This document shows, in pieces, positions 10,215 to 29,890 of a stretch of DNA of 29,890 bases. The notes below the pieces were generated by a model, which did not search any database, was not told where the DNA came from, and saw nothing but the letters and a program-made list of their open reading frames with translations. Origin of the DNA: a virus (taxonomy: Duplodnaviria > Heunggongvirae > Uroviricota > Caudoviricetes); IMG/VR virus record IMGVR_UViG_2778261248_000002. The stretch is one strand, 5' to 3'. Made by a program: the position numbers and the translations under genes. The number at the start of each line of letters is the position of its first letter. Within the stretch, counting starts at the first letter, position 1.

Positions 10215-10218
10215 GGTT

Positions 10219-12430: not shown

Positions 12431-12710
12431 TCAGTAACCTCGTGATGGTTTTCTCGCGCTGTGCTTCACGCTTCGCCGCGTTCTCCAGTTCCTGACGCAG
12501 TGCCACCTGCGCCAGCTCGTTTTTGTCTGCTCTGGTGAGGGCAACATGAAGCTGATTTTTCAGCATGGTGATGGTCGTCTGCTGCCCGTTGGCGACGTTG
12601 TTCGCCCTGTCCAGCGAGGTGCGCAGGCTGGCGTTTTCATGCTTCGCCAGAAACAGACCGGCCACCGCCAGTGATAACAACACAACCAGCACAATCATCA
12701 GCTTTGACAT
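12285..12710 (-). CDS. lysB: LysB, Rz-like inner-membrane spanin
   Basis: 141 aa. N-terminal TM segment (LMIVLVVLLSLAVAGLFLA), then a charged coiled-coil-like region. 13-nt overlap with lysA. Confidence 0.8.
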   Translation of the reverse strand: MSKLMIVLVVLLSLAVAGLFLAKHENASLRTSLDRANNVANGQQTTITMLKNQLHVALTRADKNELAQVALRQELENAAKREAQREKTITRLLNENEDFRRWYGAGLPDAVRRLHQRPACTDASDCRQRLPESESLPDAGQ

Positions 12711-13123: not shown

Positions 13124-13137
13124 GGTGTTTACTCCGT

Positions 13138-13635: not shown

Positions 13636-13916
13636 TACTGTTTCCCCCTGCCCTTAAAGCGGCGCTGAATGGCAATCTCAATCACCTGATAACCGGCGAT
13701 ACCCAGCATGGAGCCGATGCCGCACACCGCAGGCAGTGACAGGTCAGGAAACTGCACCAGAACAACACCGGCAACCATCGAGACAAAACCACCGAGCAAC
13801 ATGCGCCCGATAAACAGACGCGGGGTGATGGGTTCACCACCGGCAAGCACCTTGCCGACAACAATCAGCACCCCAATCATGAAAAGCGACAGGACGCTTT
13901 TTTCTTCTGCTGTCAT
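13635..13916 (-). CDS. Y: holin (gpY-like)
   Basis: 93 aa with TM segments (LFMIGVLIVVGKVLAGG...) and a charged C-terminus (RRFKGRGKQ). Confidence 0.85.
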   Translation of the reverse strand: MTAEEKSVLSLFMIGVLIVVGKVLAGGEPITPRLFIGRMLLGGFVSMVAGVVLVQFPDLSLPAVCGIGSMLGIAGYQVIEIAIQRRFKGRGKQ

Positions 13917-13919
13917 GCG

Positions 13920-14123
13920 TTACTCCCACAGATTGACAGTTTCAGCCACGGGCGCGGTCTGAACGTCGGGCAGTTCGACGGCGGTGCCATGTGGCAGCAC
14001 CGCACCCAGTTCAGCCAGTCCCGGATTTGCGGCGAGCACGGCCTCGACCACGCCCTCAGTGCGCCCGTAATACCGGACACAAATGGCGTCGAGCGTGTCG
14101 CCCTGTAGCGCAAAGGTCTTCAT
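13920..14123 (-). CDS. X: tail protein X (LysM-like)
   Basis: 67 aa from ATG 14123-14121 (MKTFALQGDTLDAICVRYYG...), overlapping the L stop by 1 nt. The longer 90-aa track ORF has no better start. Confidence 0.75.
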   Translation of the reverse strand: MKTFALQGDTLDAICVRYYGRTEGVVEAVLAANPGLAELGAVLPHGTAVELPDVQTAPVAETVNLWE

Positions 14124-14632
14124 CAGATTTGACTCACGATGCAGCGCGGCTTGTCCTGGATGCGCGCCACTGCCCAGCGCATATCCCGCCACAGCTCATC
14201 AATGGTGCTGTCTATGCTGTCGGCCTTTTTGTCGCCTTTCGCACTGGCATCCACGCCGCGATAACGCTCATAAAGCGACGCGGTCGCCATCGAACACACG
14301 GCGCGCTCGTAGTAAAAAACTTTGATGCTTTCACCGTCGATGTCGTCCGCCGGGACGTCCGCCAGACGCGTAAAACCGGCGGCAATTTTCTGTTCGCGGT
14401 ACTCGTACAGCTCCGCATTCGTCTCCGCCATGCCTGACTTGATGGCCTCACGCAGACGGGCGGGGGCGACGGTCTGCTCAAGGCGCATACGTTCCCGGAC
14501 GCGCTTCGGGTCGATATCGGGAAAAAAGAACGTGTTTTTAATCACCGGCTCGTCGCCTGCCGGTTGCGGGATGACCACCGTACCCTCACCGGACACGGGA
14601 GCCTCCTTTCGCGGAATAATCAGCGTCATCAT
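14123..14632 (-). CDS. L: head completion/stabilisation protein L
   Basis: 169 aa from the tandem ATG ATG at 14632-14627 (MMTLIIPRKE...), preceded by GAGG. Upstream part of the track ORF rejected. Confidence 0.85.
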   Translation of the reverse strand: MMTLIIPRKEAPVSGEGTVVIPQPAGDEPVIKNTFFFPDIDPKRVRERMRLEQTVAPARLREAIKSGMAETNAELYEYREQKIAAGFTRLADVPADDIDGESIKVFYYERAVCSMATASLYERYRGVDASAKGDKKADSIDSTIDELWRDMRWAVARIQDKPRCIVSQI

Positions 14633-14731
14633 GACTACCTCTGAAAAGTCGGGCGGTGGACGCCGGTGCAGTGTCAGGTGACTCACCCTCACTGACCGGC
14701 GTGCCGCCCTGGCGCGGGGCGCATTCGGTTG

Positions 14732-15469
14732 TTAACTGGCTTTCTTTTTCGGGCGTCCACGTTTTGCCGGTGTCGCGCTCCGGGTCTTACGCGGGGCGCG
14801 GGTGGCCGCTTTTGGCTGCGGCTTCGGTTTCAGTTCCCGCTCCAGTCGTTCAATCTCTTTTTTGACGCCTGCCTGACAGTCTAGCTGTGTCGCACGTTGC
14901 AGGTGCGCCAGCGCACCGGCGGCATCACCAGCGTCACGCAGAAACAGACCGGTGATTTTGTGCAGCTTTGCGCGCACTTCATCAGGCATGTCAGCAGCGG
15001 CGGTCAGTTCAAGGGTGTCCGTCAGCAGGCGGGTATCCACAGACTCACCGGCAGCGTGGGCGCGCATGGCCGCGAGCGCCACCTCCTCGGTGAACATGTA
15101 CGGCGGGGTGCGGCGGTGTTTACCCGGCATGGTCAGACCGTACTTCAGGGCATAACGGGCAATCTCCAGCGCACCGGCAATATCGCCGGTATCCAGACGC
15201 CACAGCATGACCGTCATCAGAATGTCATCCTGTGCACCTTTGCCCTGCTCCAGCACACCGTTCACCCACGGCAACCAGAACGGCAGCAGTTCGCGCTTTT
15301 TCGCGGCCTTAAGCTCTTTTGAATAAATCGCTTTCAGTGTGCGCTGGTCTGCGGCGAGCTTAACCAGCATCTGCTCATAGACAGTTGCATGTCGCAGCGG
15401 GGCGGCTTCCCGCTGCGCGGTCATCGCTGCCGAGACCCGCATCATGTGGCGCTGTGCGGGACTCGTCAT
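14732..15469 (-). CDS. M: terminase small (endonuclease) subunit M
   Basis: 245 aa with a basic Lys/Arg-rich C-terminal tail; directly downstream of capsid gene N. Confidence 0.85.
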   Translation of the reverse strand: MTSPAQRHMMRVSAAMTAQREAAPLRHATVYEQMLVKLAADQRTLKAIYSKELKAAKKRELLPFWLPWVNGVLEQGKGAQDDILMTVMLWRLDTGDIAGALEIARYALKYGLTMPGKHRRTPPYMFTEEVALAAMRAHAAGESVDTRLLTDTLELTAAADMPDEVRAKLHKITGLFLRDAGDAAGALAHLQRATQLDCQAGVKKEIERLERELKPKPQPKAATRAPRKTRSATPAKRGRPKKKAS

Positions 15470-15472
15470 CGG

Positions 15473-16546
15473 TTACGCTCCCGGCTCTGCGGTCGCCCTG
15501 GCCGGTGTGGAGAAATCACCGACCTTAATTTTTTCCACCAGACAACCGGCGGCGTAGTCTTCCACCACGTAATCAATGTTCATTGACTCGTAGTTCTCCA
15601 CGCGGTCGAGTTTCGGGTTTTCCTCAATCACGCGGCGATGGCTGTCATCCATGTAGTAGATGGACAGGTTTTCCAGCTTCGTGATGAGCATCGCATCCGC
15701 CGGGAAGTACGGGACGCGTACCGCTGGCAGGTTACCGATGCGTTTCTGGCTGATGATGACGTCAGCGGCCAGCATTTCGCTGTTGTCCTGCTCCTTGTTA
15801 ACGATGGGGAAATACTTGTCCGCCAGTAGCTGACGTCCCACAATCACCACAAGGTCAGGGTCTTCCTGATACCACGGCTCAATCAGGTTGTTGGTCGCAT
15901 CCATCACCAGTGCGTCAAGGCTGGCATAATCACCGCCCTTACCCACGCGGATGACCTCAGAGGTGGTGTGCCCTTCCTCGTCAGTGACCTTGCTCATCAC
16001 GCGCGCCGGGGCTTCATTGCGGTATTTCTGCAGCCAGCCGACCGCCACATCCTGCAGCATCGGATTGCTGCTGCGGTCAGAGGTTTCTGCACGCTTCACG
16101 CCGTTAAAACCGGCCATGATGAAATCAAGGGACTGGCGTTTGATAATGGCGTTACGGATACGGAGCTGGAAATCCTGATAACGCGCCCACAGGTCAAGCG
16201 TTTTGTAGCGGATATAAAAATCGAAGTTAATCTGGTCGCATTCGTACTTGTTTGACGCCAGCTTCGAGAAGTCCTTCGGCTGACGCTCGGTTCCACCGGC
16301 GGTGTCGCTGGTGCTGGCGATGGAGCCGGTGACACCAATACCAATTTTTTCCCCTTTCATTTCGCTGACCGGCACAATGTTGATGCGGGTCAGAAAGTCA
16401 GAGGACTCCTGCATGGTGTTCATCAGGGTCTGGGTGACCGACGGTTCAACGGTGAATTTTTTCGACACATCACCGGCGTCGATGCCGTTCAGTTCGGCAA
16501 CACGGGACAGGTAGGCATTAAATTTAAAGCGGGTTTCCTGGCGCAT
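15473..16546 (-). CDS. N: major capsid protein N
   Basis: 357 aa; ATG at 16546-16544; between scaffold O and M; size matches P2 gpN. Confidence 0.9.
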   Translation of the reverse strand: MRQETRFKFNAYLSRVAELNGIDAGDVSKKFTVEPSVTQTLMNTMQESSDFLTRINIVPVSEMKGEKIGIGVTGSIASTSDTAGGTERQPKDFSKLASNKYECDQINFDFYIRYKTLDLWARYQDFQLRIRNAIIKRQSLDFIMAGFNGVKRAETSDRSSNPMLQDVAVGWLQKYRNEAPARVMSKVTDEEGHTTSEVIRVGKGGDYASLDALVMDATNNLIEPWYQEDPDLVVIVGRQLLADKYFPIVNKEQDNSEMLAADVIISQKRIGNLPAVRVPYFPADAMLITKLENLSIYYMDDSHRRVIEENPKLDRVENYESMNIDYVVEDYAAGCLVEKIKVGDFSTPARATAEPGA

Positions 16547-16604
16547 AGTTTTTCCTGAAATTAAGGGTTAATCGTGAAGGTTTTCCCGGACTGACTGACA
16601 CCGG

Positions 16605-17459
16605 TCAGCAGTTCGTCATCAGGGCGTCACCGCCACCGCCGGTGGCTTTACTGCGGCGCTGCTGGGTCAGACTTTCGGTGTGGTCGAGACTGTTTTTCAG
16701 GCGGGTGAATGCCTGGCTGGTTTCATCCGCCCTGTCAGTCACCTCCTGCTTAAGTGCGGAAAAGGCGTTTTCCATCTCAGCGAGGCGCTGCTCAGTGGCG
16801 CTCAGTTTTTCCTGCACATGTTCAGCAACAGCGGTCACCGCTTCATGCACGTCATTCAGACGGGCGTCATCGCTGGCCTGTTTGCGGCCAAAAATGGATT
16901 TCACCTTTTCGGTCAGGGCGGTGAACACGGTTTCAGGCAGGTCTTCAAATTCCAGCTCAACAGGCGTTGCCACTGAAATCAGGTTTTCAGGGCTTAATTT
17001 GAAGCGGTTCAGGGGGTTGTGTTTTGCCGTGCGGCAGAATTCCAGGTATTCCGTGCCGAGGCTTGCCGGGTCATCGGTGACGGCCAGCCCCACCAGATAA
17101 CATTTGCCGGTGTTGGCAAAGTTCGGCTGAATTTCCATTGAGGTGTAGACCTTCTGCGCGGCCTTGTTCATCGCGATAAGGTCATCGGTCGGGGTGATTT
17201 TCGCAAACAGCGCCCATTTGCCTTTCAGCGCCGAATCATCGTCAATCTTTTCGGCCTTCAGTTCGGCCACATCGCCATAACGCTTAAAAATACCGTCAGG
17301 CAGGATGCCGCGCAGATGTTCCAGGTTAATGCGGCAACCATAGACTCGCGGGTCAAAGGTTTCGGCCATTTCCTGAATATCCTGCGCACTGATGACACGC
17401 CCGTCACAGGTGTCACCCTCAACGCCGATACGAAAGAATTTTGAGACTTTTTTTGCCAT
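16605..17459 (-). CDS. O: capsid scaffolding protein O
   Basis: 284 aa from ATG 17459-17457 (MAKKVSKFFRIGVEG...). Acidic, coiled-coil C-terminal half. Divergent from P. Confidence 0.85.
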   Translation of the reverse strand: MAKKVSKFFRIGVEGDTCDGRVISAQDIQEMAETFDPRVYGCRINLEHLRGILPDGIFKRYGDVAELKAEKIDDDSALKGKWALFAKITPTDDLIAMNKAAQKVYTSMEIQPNFANTGKCYLVGLAVTDDPASLGTEYLEFCRTAKHNPLNRFKLSPENLISVATPVELEFEDLPETVFTALTEKVKSIFGRKQASDDARLNDVHEAVTAVAEHVQEKLSATEQRLAEMENAFSALKQEVTDRADETSQAFTRLKNSLDHTESLTQQRRSKATGGGGDALMTNC

Positions 17460-17632
17460 TGTCAGGAGTCCTGAATAGTGATTAGAGGAGTCACATGTCG
17501 GCACCAGTTTCCCGACGATGCGCATCCTCCGCCATCAGTCCCGGATGGCTTATCACTGACACAACAGCACCTTAGCGAATCGCGGGGCGCGACTCAGTAG
17601 CCTTGCCGTGTATTCATCACGGCGAGGTATTC

Positions 17633-19405
17633 ATGACCATCACCACAGACACCACTCTTTTACACGACCCGCGTCGTCAGGCGGCGCTGCTGTACTGGCA
17701 GGGGTTTTCCGTGCCGCAGATTGCCGCCATGTTGCAGATGAAACGCCCGACGGTGCAGAGCTGGAAACAGCGCGACGGCTGGGACAGCGTTGCCCCCATC
17801 AGCCGTGTCGAAATGAGTCTGGAAGCGCGACTGACCCAGCTCATCATCAAACCGCAGAAAACCGGCGGTGACTTCAAGGAAATTGACCTGCTGGGACGCC
17901 AGATTGAACGACTGGCACGGGTAAATCGTTACAGCCAGACCGGCAACGAGGCAGACCTTAATCCGAACGTCGCTAACCGCAACAAAGGCGGGCGGCGCAA
18001 ACCGAAAAAGAATTTTTTCAGTGACGAGGCCATCGAAAAGCTGGAGCAGATTTTCTTTGAGCAGTCTTTCGACTATCAGTTGCACTGGTATCGCGCCGGG
18101 CTTGAGCACCGCATCCGCGATATCCTGAAATCCCGTCAGATTGGCGCAACGTTTTATTTTTCCCGCGAGGCGCTGCTGCGCGCCCTGAAAACCGGTCATA
18201 ACCAGATTTTTCTGTCGGCCAGTAAAACGCAGGCGTATGTATTCCGTGAATACATCATCGCCTTTGCCCGTCTGGTTGACGTTGACCTGACCGGTGACCC
18301 GATTGTCCTGGGCAATAACGGCGCAAAACTGATTTTTCTCGGCACCAACTCCAACACCGCACAGAGTCATAACGGCGACCTGTACGTCGATGAGATTTTC
18401 TGGATCCCGAATTTTCAGGTACTGCGTAAGGTGGCATCAGGTATGGCCTCACAGAGTCACCTGCGCTCGACCTATTTCTCCACCCCGTCCACGCTGGCGC
18501 ACGACGCCTATCCGTTCTGGTCGGGTGAACTGTTCAACCGGGGACGCGCCAGCGCCGCCGAACGCGTGGAAATCGACGTCAGTCATAACGCCCTTTCCGG
18601 TGGTCTTCTCTGTGCGGACGGTCAGTGGCGGCAGATTGTCACCATTGAGGACGCCCTGAAAGGCGGCTGCACGCTGTTCGACATTGAGCAGCTCAAACGC
18701 GAAAACAGCGCCGACGATTTTAAAAACCTGTTCATGTGTGAATTTGTTGACGACAAGGCGTCGGTGTTCCCGTTCGAGGAGCTGCAACGCTGCATGGTCG
18801 ACACGCTGGAAGAATGGGAAGACTATGCGCCGTTTGCCGCCAATCCGTTCGGCTCCCGCCCGGTCTGGATTGGTTACGACCCGTCACACCGTGGCGACAG
18901 TGCCGGATGCGTGGTGCTGGCACCGCCGGTGGTGGCCGGTGGCAAATTCAGAATACTTGAGCGTCACCAGTGGAAAGGCATGGACTTTGCCACCCAGGCT
19001 GAATCCATCCGCAAACTCACCGAAAAATACAACGTCGAATACATCGGTATTGATGCCACCGGCCTCGGTGTCGGCGTGTTCCAGCTCGTGCGCTCGTTCT
19101 ATCCCGCCGCGCGCGACATCCGCTACACGCCGGAAATGAAAACCGCAATGGTGCTCAAGGCAAAAGACGTCATCCGCCGTGGCTGTCTGGAATACGACGT
19201 CAGCGCCACCGACATCACCAGCTCGTTTATGGCTATCCGCAAGACCATGACCAGCAGCGGACGCAGTGCCACCTATGAGGCCAGCCGCAGCGAGGAAGCC
19301 AGCCACGCCGACCTCGCCTGGGCGACCATGCACGCCCTGTTAAATGAGCCACTCACCGCCGGTATCAGCACCCCGCTGACATCCACCATTCTGGAGTTTT
19401 ACTGA
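17633..19405 (+). CDS. P: terminase large (ATPase) subunit P
   Basis: 590 aa from ATG 17633 (MTITTDTTLL...), preceded by GAGGT. Stop TGA overlaps the Q ATG (TGATG). Confidence 0.9.
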   Translation: MTITTDTTLLHDPRRQAALLYWQGFSVPQIAAMLQMKRPTVQSWKQRDGWDSVAPISRVEMSLEARLTQLIIKPQKTGGDFKEIDLLGRQIERLARVNRYSQTGNEADLNPNVANRNKGGRRKPKKNFFSDEAIEKLEQIFFEQSFDYQLHWYRAGLEHRIRDILKSRQIGATFYFSREALLRALKTGHNQIFLSASKTQAYVFREYIIAFARLVDVDLTGDPIVLGNNGAKLIFLGTNSNTAQSHNGDLYVDEIFWIPNFQVLRKVASGMASQSHLRSTYFSTPSTLAHDAYPFWSGELFNRGRASAAERVEIDVSHNALSGGLLCADGQWRQIVTIEDALKGGCTLFDIEQLKRENSADDFKNLFMCEFVDDKASVFPFEELQRCMVDTLEEWEDYAPFAANPFGSRPVWIGYDPSHRGDSAGCVVLAPPVVAGGKFRILERHQWKGMDFATQAESIRKLTEKYNVEYIGIDATGLGVGVFQLVRSFYPAARDIRYTPEMKTAMVLKAKDVIRRGCLEYDVSATDITSSFMAIRKTMTSSGRSATYEASRSEEASHADLAWATMHALLNEPLTAGISTPLTSTILEFY

Positions 19406-20439
19406 TGAGCAAGAAAAAAGGAAAAACACCGCAACCTGCGGCAAAAAAAAAGACCGCCAGCGCCCCGAAAATGGAGGCATTCACCTTTGGTGAGCCGGTG
19501 CCGGTACTCGACCGCCGTGACATTCTGGATTACGTCGAGTGCATCAGTAACGGCAGATGGTATGAGCCACCGGTCAGCTTTACCGGTCTGGCAAAAAGCC
19601 TGCGTGCTGCCGTGCATCACAGCTCACCGATTTACGTCAAACGTAATATTCTGGCCTCGACATTTATCCCGCATCCGTGGCTTTCCCAGCAGGATTTCAG
19701 CCGCTTTGTGCTGGATTTTCTGGTGTTCGGTAATGCGTTTCTGGAAAAGCGTTACAGCACCACCGGTAAGGTCATCAGACTGGAAACCTCACCGGCAAAA
19801 TATACCCGCCGTGGCGTGGAAGAGGATGTTTACTGGTGGGTGCCGTCCTTCCATGAGCCGACACCTTTCGCGCCCGGCTCCGTGTTTCACCTGCTGGAGC
19901 CGGATATTAATCAGGAGCTGTACGGCCTGCCGGAATATCTCAGCGCCCTTAACTCTGCCTGGCTGAATGAGTCGGCCACGCTGTTCCGCCGCAAGTATTA
20001 CGAAAACGGCGCACATGCCGGATACATCATGTACGTCACCGATGCCGTGCAGGATCGCAACGATATCGAAATGCTCCGCGAAAACATGGTGAAGTCGAAA
20101 GGCCGCAACAACTTTAAAAATCTGTTTCTCTATGCCCCGCAAGGGAAAGCCGACGGCATTAAAATTATCCCGCTCAGTGAAGTGGCGACGAAGGACGATT
20201 TTTTTAATATCAAAAAAGCCAGCGCCGCAGACCTGCTGGACGCACACCGCATCCCCTTTCAGTTGATGGGCGGCAAGCCGGAGAACGTCGGGTCACTGGG
20301 AGATATTGAGAAAGTGGCAAAGGTCTTTGTCCGCAATGAGCTTATCCCGTTACAGGACAGGATCCGCGAGATAAACGGCTGGCTCGGTCAGGAGGTCATC
20401 CGCTTTAAAAACTACTCACTGGACACTGACAACGGCTGA
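19405..20439 (+). CDS. Q: portal (capsid vertex) protein Q
   Basis: 344 aa. Followed by a strong intrinsic terminator and then cos, as at the P2 left end. Confidence 0.9.
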   Translation: MSKKKGKTPQPAAKKKTASAPKMEAFTFGEPVPVLDRRDILDYVECISNGRWYEPPVSFTGLAKSLRAAVHHSSPIYVKRNILASTFIPHPWLSQQDFSRFVLDFLVFGNAFLEKRYSTTGKVIRLETSPAKYTRRGVEEDVYWWVPSFHEPTPFAPGSVFHLLEPDINQELYGLPEYLSALNSAWLNESATLFRRKYYENGAHAGYIMYVTDAVQDRNDIEMLRENMVKSKGRNNFKNLFLYAPQGKADGIKIIPLSEVATKDDFFNIKKASAADLLDAHRIPFQLMGGKPENVGSLGDIEKVAKVFVRNELIPLQDRIREINGWLGQEVIRFKNYSLDTDNG

Positions 20440-20444
20440 ACATC

Positions 20445-20466
20445 GCCGCCTGCGGGCGGCTTTTTT
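20445..20466 (+). terminator. rho-independent terminator after portal gene Q
   Basis: GCCGCC-tgcg-GGCGGC perfect 6-bp GC stem with 4-nt loop, followed by TTTTTT (20461-20466), 6 nt after the Q stop. Confidence 0.75.
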
Positions 20467-20608
20467 ACAACCCGTCATCACGCCCTCACACGCTCACCAC
20501 CGCGCAAAACAGCCCGCAGACAAACCAACGCCCCGGCGCACAATCTAAACGCCATCACGACGCGCTCAGACGCTGAAAAAATAAAATCAGCACCACCGCC
20601 AGCGCGCA

Positions 20609-20627
20609 GTGCTTTCCCCGCCTCGCC
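20609..20627. other. cos site, 19-nt cohesive-end sequence (P2/P4 type)
   Basis: Plus strand GTGCTTTCCCCGCCTCGCC is the reverse complement of GGCGAGGCGGGGAAAGCAC, which I recall as the P2/P4 cohesive end. Flanking sequence (minus strand: ...ggaaagcactgcgcgctggcggtggtgctgatttt...) resembles the P2/P4 genome left end from memory. Confidence 0.8.
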
Positions 20628-20834
20628 CGCCCGCTTCATGGGGCGCTTTTAATGCAGTTTCATGAATACGTTGGAAGCGCGCCAGACGTCACGGACAATA
20701 CTTCAAATAAGTAAAGCTAATGCATGCAAAAAAATTCACGTCCATGCATACACCAGAAACTGCCATTTATAAGGATGATGTATGCAGTAGCCATATAAAA
20801 AGCTATACTCTTGCCGGTTTATCAGGGGGAGAAA

Positions 20835-21818
20835 ATGCCAAAAGCTGTATCATTGTTCTCGGGTTGTGGTGGTTCCGATGCTGGATTAAGCAAAGCTGGT
20901 TTCGACATCGTTATGGCAAACGATATTTTGCCATATGCGAGAGAGGTTTATCTCGCAAACCTACCAGAAACAGATTACCTAATCCAAGATATCCGAGAAG
21001 TTGAAAAATTTCCGAGTGCAGACCTTCTTGTTGGATGCTATCCATGCCAAGGATTTAGCCAAGGTGGCGCACGTCTTGCGGACAGGAGTATAAATTTTTT
21101 ATATAAAGAGTTTGCACGTGCATTAACCAATATTCAACCTAAAGCATTTATTGTCGAAAATGTTTCAGGTATGAGAAATAGTACATTTAAGCATCTACTC
21201 GATGATCAAATAAAACGCTTCTCCAATGCTGGTAATATAGGCTATAAAGTTGTTTGGAATATACTCAAAGCTCACCACTACGGTGTACCGCAAGAGCGTA
21301 AGAGATTAATAATTGTAGGTATTCGTAACGACTTCGACCTAGAATATAAATTCCCTGAAGCCACACATGGTGAGGAAAAATCATTACCTTATGTAACAAT
21401 CGGTGAAGCACTAAAGGGATTACCTGAATGGCCAATCGGTGAGTTTTGTGATGACCCATTTCACTGGTACTATTTATCTAGGAATAGACGCCGCAACTGG
21501 GACGAAGTTAGTAAAACTATCGTAAGTAATCTTCGTCATATTCCCTTGCATCCCATCAGCCCCGAATTAAAAAAAGTGGGTATAGACAAGTGGGAGTTTA
21601 TAACAAACTCGCCAGCCAGACGCTTCTCTTATAAAGAAGCGGCGATTCTGCAAGGGTTTAGTAAAGAATATACCAATCATGGTGGTTATCTAACTTTTCC
21701 TGACATGGATAGTTTTGGGGCCGCACGGATGTTAAAAGAGAGATATAAGGTCGTAGGTAATGCAGTTCCACCACCTTTGTTTGAAGCGGTTGTGAGAAAC
21801 ATCCCTGATATATGGTAA
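20835..21818 (+). CDS. DNA (cytosine-5)-methyltransferase
   Basis: 327 aa from ATG 20835, preceded by GGGGGAGA. Motif I FSGCGG, motif IV GCYPCQGFS (catalytic Cys), motif VI ENV, QERKR, C-terminal GNAV. AT-rich codon usage unlike the phage backbone. Confidence 0.9.
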   Translation: MPKAVSLFSGCGGSDAGLSKAGFDIVMANDILPYAREVYLANLPETDYLIQDIREVEKFPSADLLVGCYPCQGFSQGGARLADRSINFLYKEFARALTNIQPKAFIVENVSGMRNSTFKHLLDDQIKRFSNAGNIGYKVVWNILKAHHYGVPQERKRLIIVGIRNDFDLEYKFPEATHGEEKSLPYVTIGEALKGLPEWPIGEFCDDPFHWYYLSRNRRRNWDEVSKTIVSNLRHIPLHPISPELKKVGIDKWEFITNSPARRFSYKEAAILQGFSKEYTNHGGYLTFPDMDSFGAARMLKERYKVVGNAVPPPLFEAVVRNIPDIW

Positions 21819-21819
21819 T

Positions 21820-21841
21820 GGCCCATCACTGGGCCTTTTTT
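21820..21841 (+). terminator. putative intrinsic terminator of the methyltransferase gene
   Basis: GGCCCA-tcac-TGGGCC 6-bp stem followed by TTTTTT, 2 nt after the MTase stop. The stop codon of the convergent 318-aa gene lies inside the hairpin loop. Confidence 0.55.
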
Positions 21842-22782
21842 AATTCTTTACAAAAGGTAATTAACGCATCTAACTCATCCTGCATATCACCAAATTCATC
21901 CTTAAAACGCTCATATGCAATAGTTAAACGGACTCGATCAAATATAATTCCAGCTTCTGCGCTTGCTTCTCTTATCATTTCATCAACTAACACATAAGGT
22001 GTTGAGAAAACTTTAACACACTTAATGTAAGTTAATGGATGAAACCATGGTGTTAACCTTTCAATTTTAATATCCTGAAACTTTGTTGGCCAATCATTAC
22101 CACAAGCGCATTGCCCTAAAGCAAATAAACGTCCATCTCTACCATCCAAAAAATCAACCCATGTAACAAAATCCACACCACAATCTTTAATTCTCAATGC
22201 ATCCTCATCTCTTAAGCCATTCTCTACGCGCCAAGACCATTCTCTTGTATTTGGTGAGATCGAAGAGTTCAGTTTATAAGCTAGTTCCTTATAACTACTA
22301 GGATTTCCATTTGAACGAGGCCAACCAGTATGCATGTGTTTTGCGTGTGAACTAAAAAATTTTGTGAATAATCGCCCAGCCATAACTTCAAAAAATCTAG
22401 GCAACTTAACATTATCTCCTTTTGTTAAATTATTAATTACAGAGACACATAAGCAAAACAGATAAACAAGGGAAGGAGACTCCTTTAATGTTAGATGATT
22501 TTCTTTATATTCAAATGGATACATATCATCCAAAACCTTTGCTCTCCATTGTATATGCTCGGCAATCTGACCAACTAAAAGCTCCTTTCCCTGATCTTCC
22601 ATCATCCATTCTTCTTCCAAATGACCATCTAAATTTTCTAACTCATCATAGATAGTTCCAGCAATTTTATCATCCTCAATTCCTGAGTCTATTGTCGCGC
22701 TAACATCAAGTAATGCATTAAATTCTGCTTGATCCGCATCTGTTGCGAATCCCTGCATTTTAGAGCGTAAACCATAATTCAC
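21826..22782 (-). CDS. hypothetical protein (318 aa), second gene of cargo operon, candidate effector
   Basis: Long ORF in AT-rich DNA, tail-to-tail with the MTase. GTG at 22782 is 2 nt after the upstream gene's TAA, suggesting translational coupling; an alternative ATG at 22758 has no SD. Acidic N-terminus; no family recognisable by eye. Confidence 0.6.
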   Translation of the reverse strand: MNYGLRSKMQGFATDADQAEFNALLDVSATIDSGIEDDKIAGTIYDELENLDGHLEEEWMMEDQGKELLVGQIAEHIQWRAKVLDDMYPFEYKENHLTLKESPSLVYLFCLCVSVINNLTKGDNVKLPRFFEVMAGRLFTKFFSSHAKHMHTGWPRSNGNPSSYKELAYKLNSSISPNTREWSWRVENGLRDEDALRIKDCGVDFVTWVDFLDGRDGRLFALGQCACGNDWPTKFQDIKIERLTPWFHPLTYIKCVKVFSTPYVLVDEMIREASAEAGIIFDRVRLTIAYERFKDEFGDMQDELDALITFCKELKKAQ

Positions 22783-22784
22783 AA

Positions 22785-23960
22785 TTAAAAACCCTCACTA
22801 TCACTTCCAGTAATAGCCTCATTAATTGATACTCTAAAAGATCTAAATTGTTTACTTATTTGCTCAAGATATATATTAAGTTGAATAGCATCCTGCATTG
22901 GTAAATCTTCACGCCCTACCCTCGTAAGACATTCGTCCAATTTACTTCTAATTTCTAACATTAAACTAGTCAACCTATCGCCGATTGGCTGAGTTAGGTC
23001 ATTAATGTCTTCAACATCCTTGCCTTGCTTGAGCAGTATAACTTTTTCTGGAGAAGCAACTATCTCAGCCAAGACACCAAGATTACGAGAGTCTTTAACT
23101 TGTGAGTTTTGTCCTTTATTTTTATTACCAAACATAGCTGTCATTAGAAGCTTCGCATTATCCAATTTCTTTTCATCTATTGGATTAGGGTCTGTAGGAT
23201 TATCTGATAAGCCCACAAAATCCTGAATACTCTTATAACTCAGCAATGTATAAACCCACGAGAATGGATAACTAGTATTGCTCCCTCTCCCTTTCTTCAC
23301 ACTATCATCTTTATTATACTTCCCAGCAGACTCCATTTGTTTAATGAAATTATATCCAGACAAAAGTCTTTTTATAGTGCTATTACGGTCACCAATCATA
23401 GTGGAAATATCAGATACGCTCATATCTCCTTCCTTGATGGTTCGAGATATCCATGCAGCCTTAGCGTATGAATCCCAATCCTTTGTAGATACGATATGCC
23501 TCACACCTAAATATGATATAAGTGATTTTTTATCTACACCATCATCGTCTTCAAAAACTATTGCTGGAACTGGGTCTATTTTAGGGCACCCATGAGAATT
23601 GTATTTATCAATATACTGTTGATGCAGATTAACTTGATCTCTTGCTCTGTCATCATTTTTAAGTATAAGACAGGCAGCCAGCCTTCTATTACCTTCCATT
23701 ACAGTGAATTTCTTATTATTATTTTTCCTCACCACCATTGGCTCAGCAGAAAAATAACCATTCACTGCAATAGAACTTATTACATCAGTAACGCCATAAT
23801 TTTTAACAATATTATTCAGCACATCAACTTGTGTATCAGATGAAGAAGAGTCTTCACCAAAGCGGGGGTTTTCAACATCAAGCTCCAGATCTTCAATATT
23901 AATATATTGAACTGCTTTATGTTTTAATTTATCCTCCACACCTACCGAGTTTTTTTTCAT
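22785..23960 (-). CDS. ParB/Srx-like N-terminal domain + HTH protein (391 aa), first gene of cargo operon
   Basis: ATG at 23960 preceded by GGGGAGGGG. N-terminus matches ParB box motifs (INIEDLELDVENPRFG ... PMVVRK...FTVMEGNRRLAACLIL, compare ParB GERRxRAA). Followed by an HTH-like segment (MSVSDISTMIGDRNSTIKRLL). C-terminal roughly 190 aa unassigned. Confidence 0.7.
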   Translation of the reverse strand: MKKNSVGVEDKLKHKAVQYINIEDLELDVENPRFGEDSSSSDTQVDVLNNIVKNYGVTDVISSIAVNGYFSAEPMVVRKNNNKKFTVMEGNRRLAACLILKNDDRARDQVNLHQQYIDKYNSHGCPKIDPVPAIVFEDDDGVDKKSLISYLGVRHIVSTKDWDSYAKAAWISRTIKEGDMSVSDISTMIGDRNSTIKRLLSGYNFIKQMESAGKYNKDDSVKKGRGSNTSYPFSWVYTLLSYKSIQDFVGLSDNPTDPNPIDEKKLDNAKLLMTAMFGNKNKGQNSQVKDSRNLGVLAEIVASPEKVILLKQGKDVEDINDLTQPIGDRLTSLMLEIRSKLDECLTRVGREDLPMQDAIQLNIYLEQISKQFRSFRVSINEAITGSDSEGF

Positions 23961-24156
23961 ATGTTTACCCCTCCCCTAAATTCTGGAATGCAACAGTGCT
24001 CAACCCTACTCTCGTTTCTGCACACCTAACATACAACAGCTAGTTTTTCCATGATAGCTTTTGCTGTCGATGCTAGACAAGCCAAAGCCTACAGCGGTCT
24101 TATACTATTCTGTTTTAACTGCATACAATCCTACCGTTTATTAACTGATTGTAAAC

Positions 24157-25800
24157 TCAAGCACCACAATCAAAAAAATCAACAGAAGGAAATCCAAGCC
24201 ACTCATCAGCGACCTGATAAGTGAAATGTTTCCCGTCATAATTTACGGTTGCCCCACGCGCCAGCGCCTCAAGCTCCCATCGCTGCGGCCTGATACCGTT
24301 CTGAGCAAGGTCAACGCGGATACGGGTGATTTGCATTCTTTCCGACCGGGTCAGTCTGGCCGATGGTGCAATTTCATGTGGTTTTAACGGGCTTCCGTTT
24401 CTTTGCTGACGGTTTGGCGTTCTCAGGTCGTATTTTAGTGCGCCCCTGAGCGCCCTCACGACCTCCGGTTCATTCCATTCAATAACACCGTCATCAACCA
24501 GATTAAGCACTGCTGCGGCGTGCTCAGAAGGTGTGGGAGCCGGTAACGAAGTATCACCACCGGTGAGCTTTCCACAGTTATTGACAGGACTCCGAGGCGC
24601 GGCGATGCCGCTTTTTAAAGTCAAAGGCTCAACGACCGGAACTTTCGGCACAATGCGCCACTCCGTCGTTCTGGTGATATGAATATGACGCGCGCCGAGA
24701 TGCGGTGCGTAAATGCCGACCACTCTCTCGACCTCTTCCTCGTACTCGTTAACGTCATCCGACGGGCTACGGGCGACCCTGACAGTCTGACAATCGCGCG
24801 GGACATTTGCCCCACCCTGCGCACGGATATACAACGCAAAATCACCACTGTCTGCGGCGGCGTAACGCTCAATACCGGCAATGGTGTTCATCAGCTCCAT
24901 CCGGCGAATTTCAGGATTAGAAATACTGCCCATCACCTTACTGATAAGGTCGATGCGCTCGCCGGTTTCCCTGTTTTCAAGGTCACACGATTTAAGAAAT
25001 TCCAGATTTGCCTGGCGGCGCGCACGCACATCACGAATGGCGTGTTTACTGGCATAAGGAGAACGGTCTTTATTGACCTCCCCGACAGCTATCAGTAACG
25101 CTTCATGCCAGCGCATACGCTGGCCTTTAAGCTGACTAATCCACCACTCATCGTTAAACAGACGGGCAATGGCAGAATATGCCTGCCTCGTGGTCATCTG
25201 TCCTTTACGGTATTTTTTCCAGTAGAGAGGGGAAATATTGAAAGCACGTGCAGCGCCAGCAACATGACCATAGAGGTGAGCCTGCGCCTCATCCGTAAAC
25301 AGCGATTCTTTTTCGCCATGCGCATCCACCCAGGCATCGCAGAGTTCCTCATACATCATGAAAAGCTGCGATGAAATACGGGCGGCAAACTTTTTCAGCT
25401 CCTTATCATTCATCCCCGGCAGACGCGCATAATGGTCACGCTCTGCCAGAAACAGCAACGACGCGTCGGTGTTCATTTCATGGCGCTGATTCACGCGCTC
25501 AATGCGCGGCCATAAACGACGCTGAAAAGTGGATGTGAGGAAATAAAACCCGTGCACCGGGCTTTTATTGCGCCGGATGTAGTCATAGCGTGAAGTAAAC
25601 AGCGAACGCAAAAAGTAAGGCAGGCGGTTAATCGTGGATAAAACACCTTGCACCTGACGCATCTCGTCACGTGTAAGGGGTCTTTCGCGCCCGACGGCCT
25701 CGCGTGGCGCGTTCCATGCATAAGCACCGGTAAACGCCTTACCGGTGCCTGCAGCAAATGCTGAAGGAGGGACAAAACGCCCGGAGGCTTTAACGGCCAT
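24157..25800 (-). CDS. A: replication initiation protein A-like (rolling-circle initiator), apparently shortened
   Basis: 547 aa from ATG 25800 (561 aa from the upstream TTG at 25842). Last and largest gene of the early operon, overlapping orf83. About 200 aa shorter than P2 A (about 761 aa as recalled). Confidence 0.75.
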   Translation of the reverse strand: MAVKASGRFVPPSAFAAGTGKAFTGAYAWNAPREAVGRERPLTRDEMRQVQGVLSTINRLPYFLRSLFTSRYDYIRRNKSPVHGFYFLTSTFQRRLWPRIERVNQRHEMNTDASLLFLAERDHYARLPGMNDKELKKFAARISSQLFMMYEELCDAWVDAHGEKESLFTDEAQAHLYGHVAGAARAFNISPLYWKKYRKGQMTTRQAYSAIARLFNDEWWISQLKGQRMRWHEALLIAVGEVNKDRSPYASKHAIRDVRARRQANLEFLKSCDLENRETGERIDLISKVMGSISNPEIRRMELMNTIAGIERYAAADSGDFALYIRAQGGANVPRDCQTVRVARSPSDDVNEYEEEVERVVGIYAPHLGARHIHITRTTEWRIVPKVPVVEPLTLKSGIAAPRSPVNNCGKLTGGDTSLPAPTPSEHAAAVLNLVDDGVIEWNEPEVVRALRGALKYDLRTPNRQQRNGSPLKPHEIAPSARLTRSERMQITRIRVDLAQNGIRPQRWELEALARGATVNYDGKHFTYQVADEWLGFPSVDFFDCGA

Positions 25801-26065
25801 ATGAGCCAAAAGCCTCTGAACAACGCCTGCTGAGTTGCTCAACCTGCGCGTTTAAATCAGCAAAAGACTTTGCGCTTCCGGTCAGAATATCGTGATGCAT
25901 CAGGCCGGAAACGAGCTGGCTTAATTTCGGATAATAACCAACCACCGCCAGCCATTCCTGACCGGCGTTTTTACCGCTTTCCGCTCTCTTTTTCTCGTGG
26001 AGAATAAACTGAAAGCTGTCACTGGTAACGACATAACGTTCGCCAATTTCAATACGAATACTCAT
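25790..26065 (-). CDS. hypothetical early protein (P2 orf83 position)
   Basis: 91 aa; ATG 26065-26063 overlaps the upstream stop; operon position. Confidence 0.6.
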   Translation of the reverse strand: MSIRIEIGERYVVTSDSFQFILHEKKRAESGKNAGQEWLAVVGYYPKLSQLVSGLMHHDILTGSAKSFADLNAQVEQLSRRCSEAFGSYGR

Positions 26066-26286
26066 GCCATTCTCCGGTAATGCTTGTTTTTTGCTTCAAA
26101 GACTGACTGGCAGGAAACACAACGCGTGGCTGACGGATAAGCCGCACGACGGGCAGCAGGTATTGGCGCGTCACACTCTTCGCAAACCAGCGCAGAAGCA
26201 CCGCAATGTTTTACCCTTGCCGCGTTAATCTGACGCTCCAGTAATTCAGCCTGTTGTTCCTGAATGAAATCTACGTTGTCCGGCAT
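26062..26286 (-). CDS. DksA/TraR-family C4 zinc-finger protein (P2 orf82 position)
   Basis: 74 aa with CEEC...(about 17 aa)...CVSC four-cysteine motif near the C-terminus, preceded by a helical acidic N-terminus. Confidence 0.75.
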   Translation of the reverse strand: MPDNVDFIQEQQAELLERQINAARVKHCGASALVCEECDAPIPAARRAAYPSATRCVSCQSVFEAKNKHYRRMA

Positions 26287-26588
26287 TACCAGTTCCTTTT
26301 GTCGTTAAGGTTCCTGGATACATCAGCGCAATAACTGGCAAGTTCTGTCGTTAATTTTGTCAGTTCATCCACTGAGGAAATTTGCTTGTGGAATACAGCG
26401 CGTTTAACAAGTAAATTGACCACATCAGACAGGAGGTTTAATTCATTCTGATAAATCGCGATAACAGATTCAGTGATGTCGCGTTTTTCTTTATCAAGAC
26501 AAAGTTGAATAAGAGACAAATCGCCATTTTTCATAACGGCGATTTTTAAGGCGTTATTCAGTAATACAACTGAATGAGAACAGGACAT
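26286..26588 (-). CDS. hypothetical early protein (P2 orf81 position)
   Basis: 100 aa from ATG 26588-26586, 1-nt overlap with the upstream stop. The track ORF starts one codon earlier at TTG. Confidence 0.55.
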   Translation of the reverse strand: MSCSHSVVLLNNALKIAVMKNGDLSLIQLCLDKEKRDITESVIAIYQNELNLLSDVVNLLVKRAVFHKQISSVDELTKLTTELASYCADVSRNLNDKRNW

Positions 26589-26812
26589 CAAAGCACCTCC
26601 CCGCGAGACAATCCGATATTGTGAAATTTTTCCGACTCCTGACTGAGCAGCTCGACTATCTCCACGCGGGATAACTCCGCCTTTGTGATATGGCGAATCA
26701 TGGCGTCAAGATGAGAAGAAAAGCGCGTCGCAGCGTCGGCCTGTGCTTCGGTTCTGGCCTGTTGCAGCAGTAATGCGTATATACCGCACTGATTTTCAGA
26801 AACTGTATGCAT
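26588..26812 (-). CDS. hypothetical early protein (P2 orf80 position)
   Basis: 74 aa from ATG 26812, preceded by GGAG at -8. Upstream track extension rejected. Confidence 0.55.
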
Positions 26813-26875
26813 GACTTTCTCCAGACAAAAAGAAGCCCCGCACAATTAAGTGCGTTAAAAACTCTGGTTAATTAC

Positions 26876-27376
26876 TTAATGCAGATATTGCTCTGGTTTT
26901 ACCGACGTCAGAATTGTCGGTGCATACTCAAACAGGCTGAATAATTCACGTAATGCACGGAATAAAGCATCACGCCAGTAACATGACTCTTCATTAATTC
27001 GCCAGTATGGCTGATTAAATTCTTTTTCTGTCAATCCGGCGTGCATAAATAAAGTACGACGCTGACTGACTGTTAAAAAACTAATATATGCATGCTCACT
27101 TGCGCCAACCTGACGGCGTTTTGAGAATGCGCCACGCAATTCATCAATTGCACATACCAGTCGTTCACGTTCGACGTCGTTCATTTCTTCAAAACGCATC
27201 GTTGCGTGACGCTGTTTTAACTGTGCATGAAAGCAAACCGTTAGCCGTTCGCGCTCCATCATCTGATTATAATAATCACATGTATCCTGCCAGCGAGGGA
27301 CGGCAAGATGCTTGCCAATTATCCGGCGCATAGCTGCTGGCTGTTTTTCAACGAGATTGAGCGTCATCACTGTCAT
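26876..27376 (-). CDS. B: replication protein B-like (helicase-loader-type accessory protein)
   Basis: 166 aa; ATG 27376-27374 overlaps the upstream stop; position after cox/small ORFs and before orf80-83/A; size matches P2 B as recalled. Confidence 0.7.
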   Translation of the reverse strand: MTVMTLNLVEKQPAAMRRIIGKHLAVPRWQDTCDYYNQMMERERLTVCFHAQLKQRHATMRFEEMNDVERERLVCAIDELRGAFSKRRQVGASEHAYISFLTVSQRRTLFMHAGLTEKEFNQPYWRINEESCYWRDALFRALRELFSLFEYAPTILTSVKPEQYLH

Positions 27377-27543
27377 TTCCAGACCCTCCGGCTTTTCAGA
27401 AAGGTCAGAGCCTTCTTTAACGGACTCTGTTTTTTGGTGCGGATAATGATTCCCTTGCGTCCCTTCCCGTGGGTGATGGTGAAGTCAATCGCCCTGGGGC
27501 TTTCGTTACGCAATAACTGAGCAATACAACGAGGTTCCTGCAT
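27373..27543 (-). CDS. small basic hypothetical protein (orf78-like position)
   Basis: 56 aa from ATG 27543, preceded by strong SD CAGGAGGAG; 4-nt overlap with the B start. Lys/Arg-rich. Confidence 0.45.
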   Translation of the reverse strand: MQEPRCIAQLLRNESPRAIDFTITHGKGRKGIIIRTKKQSPLKKALTFLKSRRVWK

Positions 27544-27660
27544 AACTCCTCCTGAAACAGAGCCGGTTTTTAGCCATGTCCGGCGCATGGTCTTGTGGTA
27601 CTATCCAATTGCTTTCACTCCAAATGTAAGCAAGTAGTTCGTAACACAAGGAATAACGAC

Positions 27661-27837
27661 ATGAATGATTTAGAAAAAACCAAGTTTCTTTTTGAGCAGA
27701 CCTGTTCAGTCATTGGCGGAGCACTTACTGAACAATCAGTAATGCCTGTTCCTGTAGAAACCCGAGCTTCACGCTTATTTGATGCTATCTATCCAGTTCT
27801 TGAGAAAAAACTCGAAGAAAAACTCGCGAAAAAATAG
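27661..27837 (+). CDS. small hypothetical protein, antisense-oriented inside the early operon
   Basis: 58 aa from ATG 27661 with AAGGA 8 nt upstream. AT-rich. Stop is 4 bp from the stop of the convergent 62-aa gene. Confidence 0.4.
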   Translation: MNDLEKTKFLFEQTCSVIGGALTEQSVMPVPVETRASRLFDAIYPVLEKKLEEKLAKK

Positions 27838-27840
27838 GCA

Positions 27841-28029
27841 TTACTCGCACTGGTGAATAAAGTCCAGTACGCCAGCGATAACGCTGATATCTTTGCCGGA
27901 CACCTGTTTATCTAAGCGTCCGGCCTCTTCTTTGATGAAATCCCCGATTTTTACCGCCAGTTCTAAAATTTCTCTCTGCGTCAGTGCCTTATCTGTGCCG
28001 CACTGGTTCGTACTATTTTTGTTCGCCAT
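27841..28029 (-). CDS. small hypothetical early protein
   Basis: 62 aa; ATG 28029-28027 preceded by AAGGGGA; 54 bp downstream of cox. Confidence 0.5.
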   Translation of the reverse strand: MANKNSTNQCGTDKALTQREILELAVKIGDFIKEEAGRLDKQVSGKDISVIAGVLDFIHQCE

Positions 28030-28083
28030 GATGTTCCCCTTATGCCGTCCGCCCTGTTGCTGACAGCCTGATTTAGCAATGAT

Positions 28084-28356
28084 TTAAAGCCCCATCCACA
28101 GCAGCCACGCGTCCCGCTGTTCTATCGGTCGGTTGTAGAATGCCTCACGCACACCACGATTGAACTCAGGAATGAAAACCAGTTTGTCTCCTGCACGAGC
28201 ATTCGGCTTAGTTGGATCGCGAAATTCAACTACCGGCAACTTGTTAGCTTTGATCATTTCAACGACCGCAGTACGCGGTTTTCCGAGCAATTCTGCAAAC
28301 TTGTCAGGGTGTACCGCATCAATCGGATACTTAACCACATAGTTGTTTGCGTCCAT
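28084..28356 (-). CDS. cox: Cox-like excisionase/early repressor of Pc
   Basis: 91 aa from ATG 28356 (MDANNYVVKYPIDAV...), preceded by GAGAGG. C-terminus ...AFYNRPIEQRDAWLLWMGL resembles the P2 Cox C-terminus as recalled. Divergent from C. Confidence 0.8.
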   Translation of the reverse strand: MDANNYVVKYPIDAVHPDKFAELLGKPRTAVVEMIKANKLPVVEFRDPTKPNARAGDKLVFIPEFNRGVREAFYNRPIEQRDAWLLWMGL

Positions 28357-28473
28357 AAAACACACCTCTCGTGCTAATCTTATCCGTCCAGCCCTCTTAA
28401 AACCGCTCAGGATCGTTCCTGACTGGCTGGACTCACGCCCCAAAAGGTTTCCGAACAAGTACCTTTTGAGGGG

Positions 28474-28503
28474 AATATAGTCTCCATAGGGGAACCATGT
28501 CAA
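28474..28503 (-). promoter_or_regulatory. early promoter Pe candidate (sigma70 -35/-10)
   Basis: Minus strand TTGACA (28503-28498), 18-nt spacer, TATATT (28479-28474). The -35 abuts the C start codon. Flanked by direct repeats GAGGGGAA (28468-28475) and TAGGGGAA (28487-28494). Confidence 0.55.
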
Positions 28504-28797
28504 ATGAAAATATCGGAGAAACTTCGCGCTATTCGCAAGGCCGAGGGATTAACACAAAAAAAATTTTGCGAGCTTAGTGGATTAGCACTTAGTTCGTTGA
28601 AAAATTATGAAGGTGGACATAAAGAGCCAGGACTACAAATCGTAAAGCAAGTAGTCAACACACCGCTGTTTAAAAAATATACATTATGGATTATGACAGA
28701 TGAGATTGCGCCAGAATCCGGGCAGATTTCCCCGGTCGTCGCACACTCTGGGCCAGAAGAAACAACATCGTCACACTCAGGCCGCAAAACTGGCTAA
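28504..28797 (+). CDS. C: immunity repressor C (P2 C-type)
   Basis: 97 aa; C-terminal ...KYTLWIMTDEIAPESGQISPVVAHSGPEETTSSHSGRKTG closely resembles the P2 C C-terminus as recalled; N-terminal HTH-like segment; upstream of int on the same strand. Confidence 0.85.
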   Translation: MKISEKLRAIRKAEGLTQKKFCELSGLALSSLKNYEGGHKEPGLQIVKQVVNTPLFKKYTLWIMTDEIAPESGQISPVVAHSGPEETTSSHSGRKTG

Positions 28798-28909
28798 CTA
28801 TTTACCGACATTACATGCACATAAAATGCATGTTACTGGTAAAAAAATATTCATCACACAACCACAAAGGGCTAAACAACAAGAAAACTCGTGTTCATCG
28901 GGGGGCTTT

Positions 28910-29890
28910 ATGAGTATCAGAAAGCTCGATGATGGACGTTATGAAGTGGATATCAGGCCTCGCGGTCGCGATGGAAAACGCATCCGCAGGAAATTTGAAA
29001 GAAAAGCTGAAGCGGTAGCATTTGAGCGATACACAATCGTCAATGCCAGTCAGAAAGAATGGGGAGGCCAGCGAGCAGACCGCCGAACTTTGACAGAATT
29101 GCTCGACATCTGGTGGAAATACCACGGGCAAAACCACGAGCATGGGACAAAAGAGTTTAATCATCTGCTCAAAACCATCAGCGGCATAGGTGATATACCA
29201 GTGAGTCGGATGAACAAAAGGGCTTTGATGGATTATCGCTCCATGCGACTACGTGATGGCATCAGTGCTGCAACGATAAACCGCGACATGTACCGATTAT
29301 CCGGCATGTTCACAAAATTAATTCAATTGGATGAATTTTCCGGGCAACACCCAATTCACGGACTGCCGCCACTGACGGAGGCTAACCCTGAAATGACGTT
29401 CCTGGAAAAAGCAGAAATCGAAAAACTGCTAAATGTTTTGACTGGTGATGACTTACTTGTCGCGCTTTTATGTCTGAGCACTGGAGGAAGATGGACGGAA
29501 GTTGCCACGCTAAAACCAGCACAGATTACAAGTTGCAGGGTTACCTTCCTGAAAACCAAAAACGGTAAAAAGCGAACAGTGCCGATTTCTGAGGAACTGG
29601 AGAAAAAAGTTAAAGAGGAGGCCAGCGCCAAATTGTTCAAGGTAGATTATGAGAAGTTTTGCGGGATTTTACGCAGAGTGAAACCTGATATACCTCCCAA
29701 TCAGGCAACCCACATTCTGCGGCATACATTCGCAAGCCATTTCATGATGAATGGGGGCAACATAATTGCACTGCAACAGATTCTGGGGCATGCGAGCATT
29801 CAGCAGACAATGACCTATGCGCACCTTGCGCCTGACTACCTGCAGAACGCCGTCGCTCTGAATCCACTAAAAGGCGGAGTGACGTTATAA
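28910..29890 (+). CDS. int: tyrosine integrase (P2 Int family)
   Basis: 326 aa from ATG 28910. Catalytic-region motifs HILRHTFAS and HASIQQTMTYAHL (Tyr nucleophile). TAA at 29888-29890 is the last triplet of the window. Confidence 0.9.
   Translation: MSIRKLDDGRYEVDIRPRGRDGKRIRRKFERKAEAVAFERYTIVNASQKEWGGQRADRRTLTELLDIWWKYHGQNHEHGTKEFNHLLKTISGIGDIPVSRMNKRALMDYRSMRLRDGISAATINRDMYRLSGMFTKLIQLDEFSGQHPIHGLPPLTEANPEMTFLEKAEIEKLLNVLTGDDLLVALLCLSTGGRWTEVATLKPAQITSCRVTFLKTKNGKKRTVPISEELEKKVKEEASAKLFKVDYEKFCGILRRVKPDIPPNQATHILRHTFASHFMMNGGNIIALQQILGHASIQQTMTYAHLAPDYLQNAVALNPLKGGVTL

Follow-up and report, generated by a model that had tools for sequence, protein, structure and literature searches.

Why is the replication gene A of this prophage about 200 codons shorter than the A genes of the P2 family? 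The stretch of DNA analyzed here (IMG/VR record IMGVR_UViG_2778261248_000002, 29,890 nucleotides, hereafter the window) is a P2-like (Peduovirus-type) prophage of Escherichia coli, extending from gene D (1..1164, − strand) through the integrase gene (28910..29890, + strand), and its gene A occupies an open reading frame (ORF) on the − strand at 24157..25842. The initial annotation had offered two explanations for the short gene: an in-frame deletion that removed part of the protein, possibly the catalytic core and/or the origin of replication (ori), or a lineage with a genuinely shorter initiator. We give a probability of about 0.93 to the reading that A is a loss-of-function deletion allele of a P2-type rolling-circle initiator gene in an otherwise intact prophage. 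This is recent, clonal, ordinary prophage decay in a well-known gene family, with nothing in it to surprise a specialist.

Length and start of the A protein

The ORF, derived anew from the window, encodes 561 residues from a TTG codon at 25842 and 547 residues from the ATG at 25800, the same values as in the initial annotation. The start shared with homologues is the ATG at 25800, since MAVKASG also opens P2 A and the A proteins of the closest relatives as annotated in RefSeq. The 547-residue form is present in a collection of 15 billion proteins, and the 561-residue form has no entry in that collection. The 14-codon TTG extension (25801..25842, −) overlaps the end of the upstream gene orf83 and is probably not translated in A.

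Family members are typically 750–780 residues long. P2 A has 761 residues (AAD03306.1; AF063097 28034..30319) and phage 186 A has 694 (NP_052289.1), lengths that the initial annotation had given correctly, and A of the prophage of E. coli strain BEN2908 has 764. The net shortfall of the window gene relative to P2 A is 214 codons, close to the 200 first estimated, and is made up of 217 deleted codons offset by three extra C-terminal codons, which are also found in BEN2908. The shortfall is a fixed structural difference and involves no statistics.

A 651-bp in-frame deletion between two copies of a 12-bp repeat

Among complete E. coli genomes, the nearest relatives of the window are the prophages of strains 746, SCU-109, CE2050, MS14384, and BEN2908, which are 99.5–99.9% identical to it and are inserted between fieF/ogrK and cpxP. 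Public contigs carrying the A allele of the window have cpxP adjoining, as in the prophages of the BEN2908/746 type. The strain 746 and BEN2908 prophages are collinear with the window, and a 651-bp gap is the sole structural difference, and the sole indel, between the window and the strain 746 prophage. The A protein of the BEN2908 and 746 prophages (WP_021512553.1, 764 residues, annotated as “replication endonuclease”) is encoded beside the same cargo and within the same gene order, and the BEN2908 gene is base-identical to window A on both sides of the gap; window A differs from it only by the absence of the 651 bp between the repeats described below.

When window A is compared with BEN2908 A, zero substitutions are found on either side of a single 651-bp in-frame gap. 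BLASTP against P2 gpA gives the same picture at greater distance: residues 1–325 of the window protein match P2 residues 1–324 and residues 314–540 match P2 residues 531–757, both at 96% identity, and the middle of P2 gpA is unmatched. At the DNA level, the window aligns with the strain 746 prophage in two blocks, 1..24862 and 24851..29890, which share 12 window bases; in the strain 746 prophage, the distance between them is greater by 651 bases. The shared 12-mer is CGCCGCCGCAGA, of which a single copy is left at 24851..24862 (−), a junction delimited by the block overlaps against both strain 746 and strain BEN2908. The full-length gene has CGCCGCCGCAGA at nt 939 and, with identical codon phase, at nt 1590; no other 12-mer occurs twice there, and CGCCGCCGCAGA is the longest direct repeat within the gene. 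The deletion comprises one repeat copy and the sequence between the copies, so that 217 residues (317–533) are gone and residues 1–316 are joined in frame to residues 534–764. Because both copies share the codon phase, the in-frame product is automatic. The retained N-terminal block (residues 1–316) is encoded at 24853..25800 (−), and the retained C-terminal block (residues 534–764 plus the stop codon), which contains ori, at 24157..24852 (−); together they form the deletion allele of 547 residues plus the stop codon (24157..25800, −). The repeat at the junction points to slipped-strand mispairing or short-homology recombination as the probable origin of the deletion.

The deleted block carries the catalytic motifs of the initiator

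Three conserved motifs have been described in P2 A, the two active-site tyrosines belonging to motif C, and ori is located in gene A (PMC3986222, citing Odegrip and Haggard-Ljungquist 2001; Liu and Haggard-Ljungquist 1994). We located these motifs by aligning the window protein with the A proteins of P2, BEN2908, and 186. The alignment to P2 and 186 A, a check proposed in the initial annotation, maps the missing block to residues 317–533 and places the HUH and tyrosine motifs inside it; this block is the portion best conserved between P2 A and 186 A, which are 38% identical overall. The first motif, F(I/Y)TLTAPSKYH, lies in the deleted block, with FITLT at residues 323–327, and is therefore absent from the window protein. 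The HUH motif, EPHHDGTPHWHM, and the tyrosine motif, GY(I/V)AKYISKNIDGYALDG, lie in the deleted block as well and are likewise absent. In P2 A, they contain H399-W-H401 and Y450-IAK-Y454 (YIAKY 450–454), respectively; the HUH motif named in the initial annotation is thus present in P2 A, and the tyrosine pair lies at the positions given there, Y450 and Y454. Counterparts of H399-W-H401 and Y450-IAK-Y454 were sought throughout the 561-residue ORF, and none was found. The sole HxH left in it is HIH at 386, which corresponds to P2 H589-I-H591, outside the Rep domain; the sole YxxxY is YWKKY at 207–211, equivalent to P2 residues 193–197. The initial annotation had noticed the same: no such tyrosine pair near residue 450 and a lone one in LYWKKY.

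Profile searches delimit the loss in the same way. The full-length BEN2908 protein matches PF05840 (Phage_GPA) at profile positions 1–321 (residues 133–462) and PF23343 (Rep ORF2/G2P) at residues 360–458. The window protein matches PF05840 with E = 6.9e-57 at profile positions 1–186 of 321 only, and the Pfam search gives no match to PF23343 in it. Taken alone, the retained N-terminal block matches PF05840 between residues 133 and 315, over profile positions 1–178 of 321, and carries no catalytic motif. Window A also matches phrog_91, “nicking at origin of replication” (E = 6.6e-195). By descent, the gene is a P2-type gpA of the PF05840 Phage_GPA family, as its homology, its early-operon position, and its internal ori indicate; motif 1, the HUH motif, and the tyrosines of motif 3, which characterize a functional HUH initiator, are all lacking from it. 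As far as sequence tells, every feature that defines a working HUH initiator is absent from window A.

Could window A nevertheless be a natural length variant of gpA, shorter and still functional? Its ORF is uninterrupted and in frame, and 186 A shows that the family tolerates some variation in length. However, 186 A, a homologous initiator with ori annotated within its gene, is short yet keeps the three catalytic motifs, whereas window A is short because these motifs are gone: the block that it lacks coincides exactly with the catalytic core (FITLT, HUH, YxxxY). Moreover, the same prophage, inserted at the same chromosomal site, is known with a full-length allele that is otherwise identical base for base, and no other Rep-type gene was seen in the window. 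Among the best 120 homologue clusters listed, nearly all are 731–779 residues long; the exceptions are one of 695 residues and two other deletion alleles, which are the only ones that are much shorter. A genuinely shorter functional initiator, the second explanation of the initial annotation, is accordingly extremely improbable.

The origin of replication is retained

The other half of the first explanation fared less well: the deletion and the loss of the catalytic core are borne out (651 bp, three motifs), but ori has not been removed. In the P2 record, the nick site is annotated within A, and in that of 186, ori is annotated within A, in line with the initial statement that ori lies inside the A coding sequence. 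The suggested search of the A coding region for the P2 nick site was successful. The P2 nick position, AF063097 29892, corresponds to window position ~24593, and 80 of the 81 bases around the annotated rep_origin (window 24553..24633, −) are identical in P2 and in the window. The origin is retained and, judging by the motifs that are gone, orphaned.

P2 gpA, a cis-acting HUH rolling-circle initiator that nicks ori in its own gene, resembles window A in the two blocks of 96% identity, in the nearly identical ori, and in the position of the gene, which in both cases ends the early operon, between orf83 and the gpA-gpQ hotspot. It differs by the presence of residues 317–533 and at the extreme C-terminus, where a few final residues diverge at the start of the cargo hotspot.

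The retained C-terminal block is poorly described by existing families. It matches phrog_14675, to which no function is assigned there. A Pfam search with its 231 residues, at E values up to 10, returned no family, no NCBIfam model matches either the 547-residue or the full-length allele, and a profile search of PDB sequences gave nothing significant (best E = 0.11). An AlphaFold2 model of the full-length homologue P0016, built from a 56-sequence alignment, was considered as a domain map and dropped (mean pLDDT 48, pTM 0.28); between residues 320 and 460, this poor model has a secondary-structure pattern that would be compatible with an HUH fold, and we do not rely on it.

Two annotation problems concern the same protein family. 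In PHROGs, two families of “unknown function” are fragments of gpA, phrog_12979 (N-terminal ~190 residues) and phrog_14675 (C-terminal ~220 residues); as they exist separately, split or truncated A genes must occur in deposited phage genomes. Several full-length gpA homologues (P0026, P0072, P0099, and P0108) carry the JGI label “large subunit ribosomal protein L30”, and the retained C-terminal region (profile positions 571–647) gives weak, non-significant PDB matches to mitochondrial uL30 (E = 0.2–0.4). The label and the uL30 matches concern the same stretch, and the label is probably a mis-annotation.

The deletion allele in public sequence data

The exact 547-residue protein is found in NCBI (EFB2850830.1, HBB4805856.1, HBE5107783.1, and HCL8786963.1), UniRef (UPI0007ACD888), Logan, and ENA. 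At least 19 public contigs from different assembly pipelines carry it, including two NCBI isolate contigs longer than 1 Mb; one Logan contig with the allele was seen in 11 samples, and the ENA carrier is a SPAdes assembly. Four loci were fetched, and all four are 100% identical to the window across 3.8–15.7 kb. A 116-bp probe spanning the junction has no full-length match in any of 5,426 complete E. coli genomes or 50,697 phage records. A count in the complete E. coli genomes gives 1,879 places (1,607 genomes) for the deleted core block and 1,880 places (1,606 genomes) for its flanks.

That the junction occurs in none of the 5,426 complete RefSeq genomes speaks for an artefact of assembly or sequencing, the true genome then carrying full-length A. 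It is difficult to see, however, how the identical gene would then appear on at least 19 contigs produced by several pipelines (NCBI, Logan, and ENA SPAdes), with the four fetched loci identical throughout. Assembler k-mers exceed 12 bp, so a repeat of this length should not collapse 651 bp. The chance that the deletion is spurious is in our estimate negligible. The allele is real and looks like one recent event carried by one clone, a clonal spread for which the contigs and the identity of the checked loci argue.

Recurrent deletion at the same 12-bp repeat was considered and dropped, since the junction is in no complete genome or phage record and the carriers checked are all identical. The D protein was also tried as a lead to ogr and attR of the deletion lineage; it is common to more than 1,400 blocks of the collection, and the loci that it retrieves are not specific to the lineage.

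Other core-less alleles of gene A

The two other deletion alleles among the homologues have a similar architecture. P0017 (553 residues; Logan SRR14306920, L008 3645..5306) results from a 624-bp in-frame internal deletion of A with 2 bp of microhomology, and is surrounded by a stretch of prophage in which the genes from int to L are open and the cargo differs. P0054 (438 residues; GCA_016665245.1, L009 5192..6508) results from a 675-bp in-frame internal deletion with 4 bp of microhomology, and lies in a heavily decayed remnant adjoining yegR. Like window A, both are in frame, have the HUH and tyrosine motifs removed, and keep the C-terminal, ori-containing part; unlike it, they stem from independent events, with other end points, in other prophage backgrounds and beside other cargo.

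Three independent alleles of this kind, and the preserved frame and unmutated retained parts of window A, could hint at an N/C fusion that is kept because it is useful: a catalytically dead, origin-binding protein that would interfere with the replication of superinfecting P2-like phages or of the excised genome of the prophage itself. Several observations argue otherwise. The protein search ranks two-half fusions highest, and frameshifted alleles would not reach its list; for the window event, the shared codon phase of the repeat copies makes the frame automatic; zero substitutions have accumulated since the deletion, so that no test of selection is possible; P0054 sits in a decayed remnant; and the allele of the window is rare. 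In addition, gene A stands at the end of the P2 early operon, and since the immunity repressor keeps this operon silent in a lysogen, the protein would ordinarily not be produced. We regard a selected, useful fusion as very unlikely.

Predicted consequences for the prophage

As a loss-of-function allele, gene A of the window would encode a product unable to nick ori, as it has neither the HUH motif nor the tyrosines, and the prophage would no longer be able to replicate by the rolling-circle mechanism or to give a normal burst on its own. The title of a 1993 article by Liu et al. describes P2 gene A as cis-acting. Given this preference for action in cis, a co-resident P2-like phage would be expected to give only inefficient help. 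P2 late transcription by Ogr normally depends on phage replication; this dependence, combined with the predicted lack of ori cleavage, means that, unaided, the prophage is expected neither to amplify nor to cause lysis. It would instead persist as an island inherited vertically, which confers immunity and retains the cargo of its hotspot. It could still serve as a helper for P4-like satellites, since transactivation of the P2 late genes by the P4 delta protein does not require replication of P2 DNA (PMC12239096).

In a published survey of defective P2-like elements with conserved neighbouring defence genes, pseudogenes were reported more often for GpA than for any other P2 core gene (PMC13586616). 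A replication-defective prophage that keeps its cargo, the consequence soundly drawn in the initial annotation, would fit this trend. The “grounded” P2-like prophages of that study resemble the window in its unchanged hotspot cargo and in the inactivation of the replication gene, which for the window is a prediction from the missing motifs. They differ in that the window is intact except for A and shows no further decay; the P0054 locus, by comparison, has lost int and all late genes. The window prophage has the look of grounding at its very beginning, not of a remnant, and offers a clean example of this earliest stage: a single deletion at a short repeat has struck the replication gene, and nothing else has decayed. 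The result bears chiefly on annotation and on how this strain is interpreted. Tools that score gene content would rate the prophage as intact, given its late genes, cos, int, repressor, and “replication endonuclease” ORF, though it is most likely replication-dead. If this holds, the strain keeps immunity, the methyltransferase/ParB-like cargo, and possibly the capacity to help P4 satellites, without the risk of lysis by its own phage.

Some considerations weigh against this reading. The loss of replication is deduced from the missing motifs, which are essential in HUH Rep proteins, and the slippage mechanism from the repeat at the junction. Both kept parts are unmutated and joined in frame, and the fusion protein may have residual or new activity. 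Finally, the view is that of the window: ogr, the two att sites, and a possible further P2-like prophage whose A gene is intact would all lie outside it.

Organization of the remainder of the window

Frames are open throughout the late genes D to Q, the three cargo genes, orf78-83, B, cox, the repressor gene, and int. Compared with strain 746, no late or cargo protein has more than a few substitutions, and the A deletion is the only lesion visible within the window. The P2-type late region is complete from gene D to gene Q (1..20439), with all frames open and no indels relative to the strain 746 prophage. It is followed by cos (20609..20627, −), an exact match to the 19-nt P2 cohesive-end sequence. 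Two Logan contigs with the deletion allele (L005 and L006, one of them the contig seen in 11 samples) end at window position 20607, 2 bases from the cos 19-mer; such a break would be expected if the genome holds a second cos-bearing element, e.g., a P4-like satellite or another P2-like prophage.

Gene A closes the early operon: orf80-83 precede it, and the gpA-gpQ hotspot follows. Directly upstream of it in the operon lies the orf83 homologue (DUF5405; 25790..26065, −), the end of which overlaps the A start. The gene B homologue (26876..27376, −) is open, and the identical gene in a public locus (L004) matches Pfam Phage_RepB; in the P2 record, gpB is annotated as required for lagging-strand synthesis. 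The cox homologue (28084..28356, −), the gene for the immunity repressor, a C-type helix-turn-helix (HTH) protein (28504..28797, +), and the integrase gene are open frames too, and the stop codon of the last coincides with the end of the window. The segment 26313..26825, with the orf81/orf80 homologues, holds all 23 substitutions that distinguish the right 5 kb of the window from BEN2908, and looks like a recombination patch in otherwise identical DNA.

The gpA-gpQ hotspot (described in 10.1101/2021.01.21.427644) is occupied by low-GC cargo (20835..23960; 36–39% GC), the protein sequences of which are identical to those of relatives with full-length A. It comprises a Dcm-type cytosine methyltransferase gene (20835..21818, +), with the DruM and MTase_II models as best PADLOC matches; a gene for a 318-residue protein (21826..22782, −) with no Pfam or PADLOC match; and a gene for a 391-residue protein with a ParB-N-like domain (22785..23960, −), as annotated by RefSeq in the relatives, which matches only the first ~160 positions of the PD-Lambda-5_A models (best E = 3e-19). 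The cargo may be an uncharacterised defence or modification module.

Many complete E. coli records (e.g., NZ_CP051733.1, NZ_CP104509.1, and NZ_CP172134.1) start exactly at the A ATG of this prophage. In records rotated in this way, the A core block lies at 951–1589 and the prophage at 2452–26457, and the assemblies seem to have been rotated to the prophage “replication” gene instead of dnaA.

In the tail region, the tail-fibre gene H contains an internal direct repeat at 7808..8171 (~84% identity, ~130 bp offset), and BEN2908 H differs in length. At about 6363..6608, between the sheath and tail-fibre assembly genes, the RefSeq annotation of the relatives has fragments of an HTH-protein gene and of a second tail-fibre-assembly gene. 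The repeat and these fragments may be remnants of an invertible tail-fibre segment.

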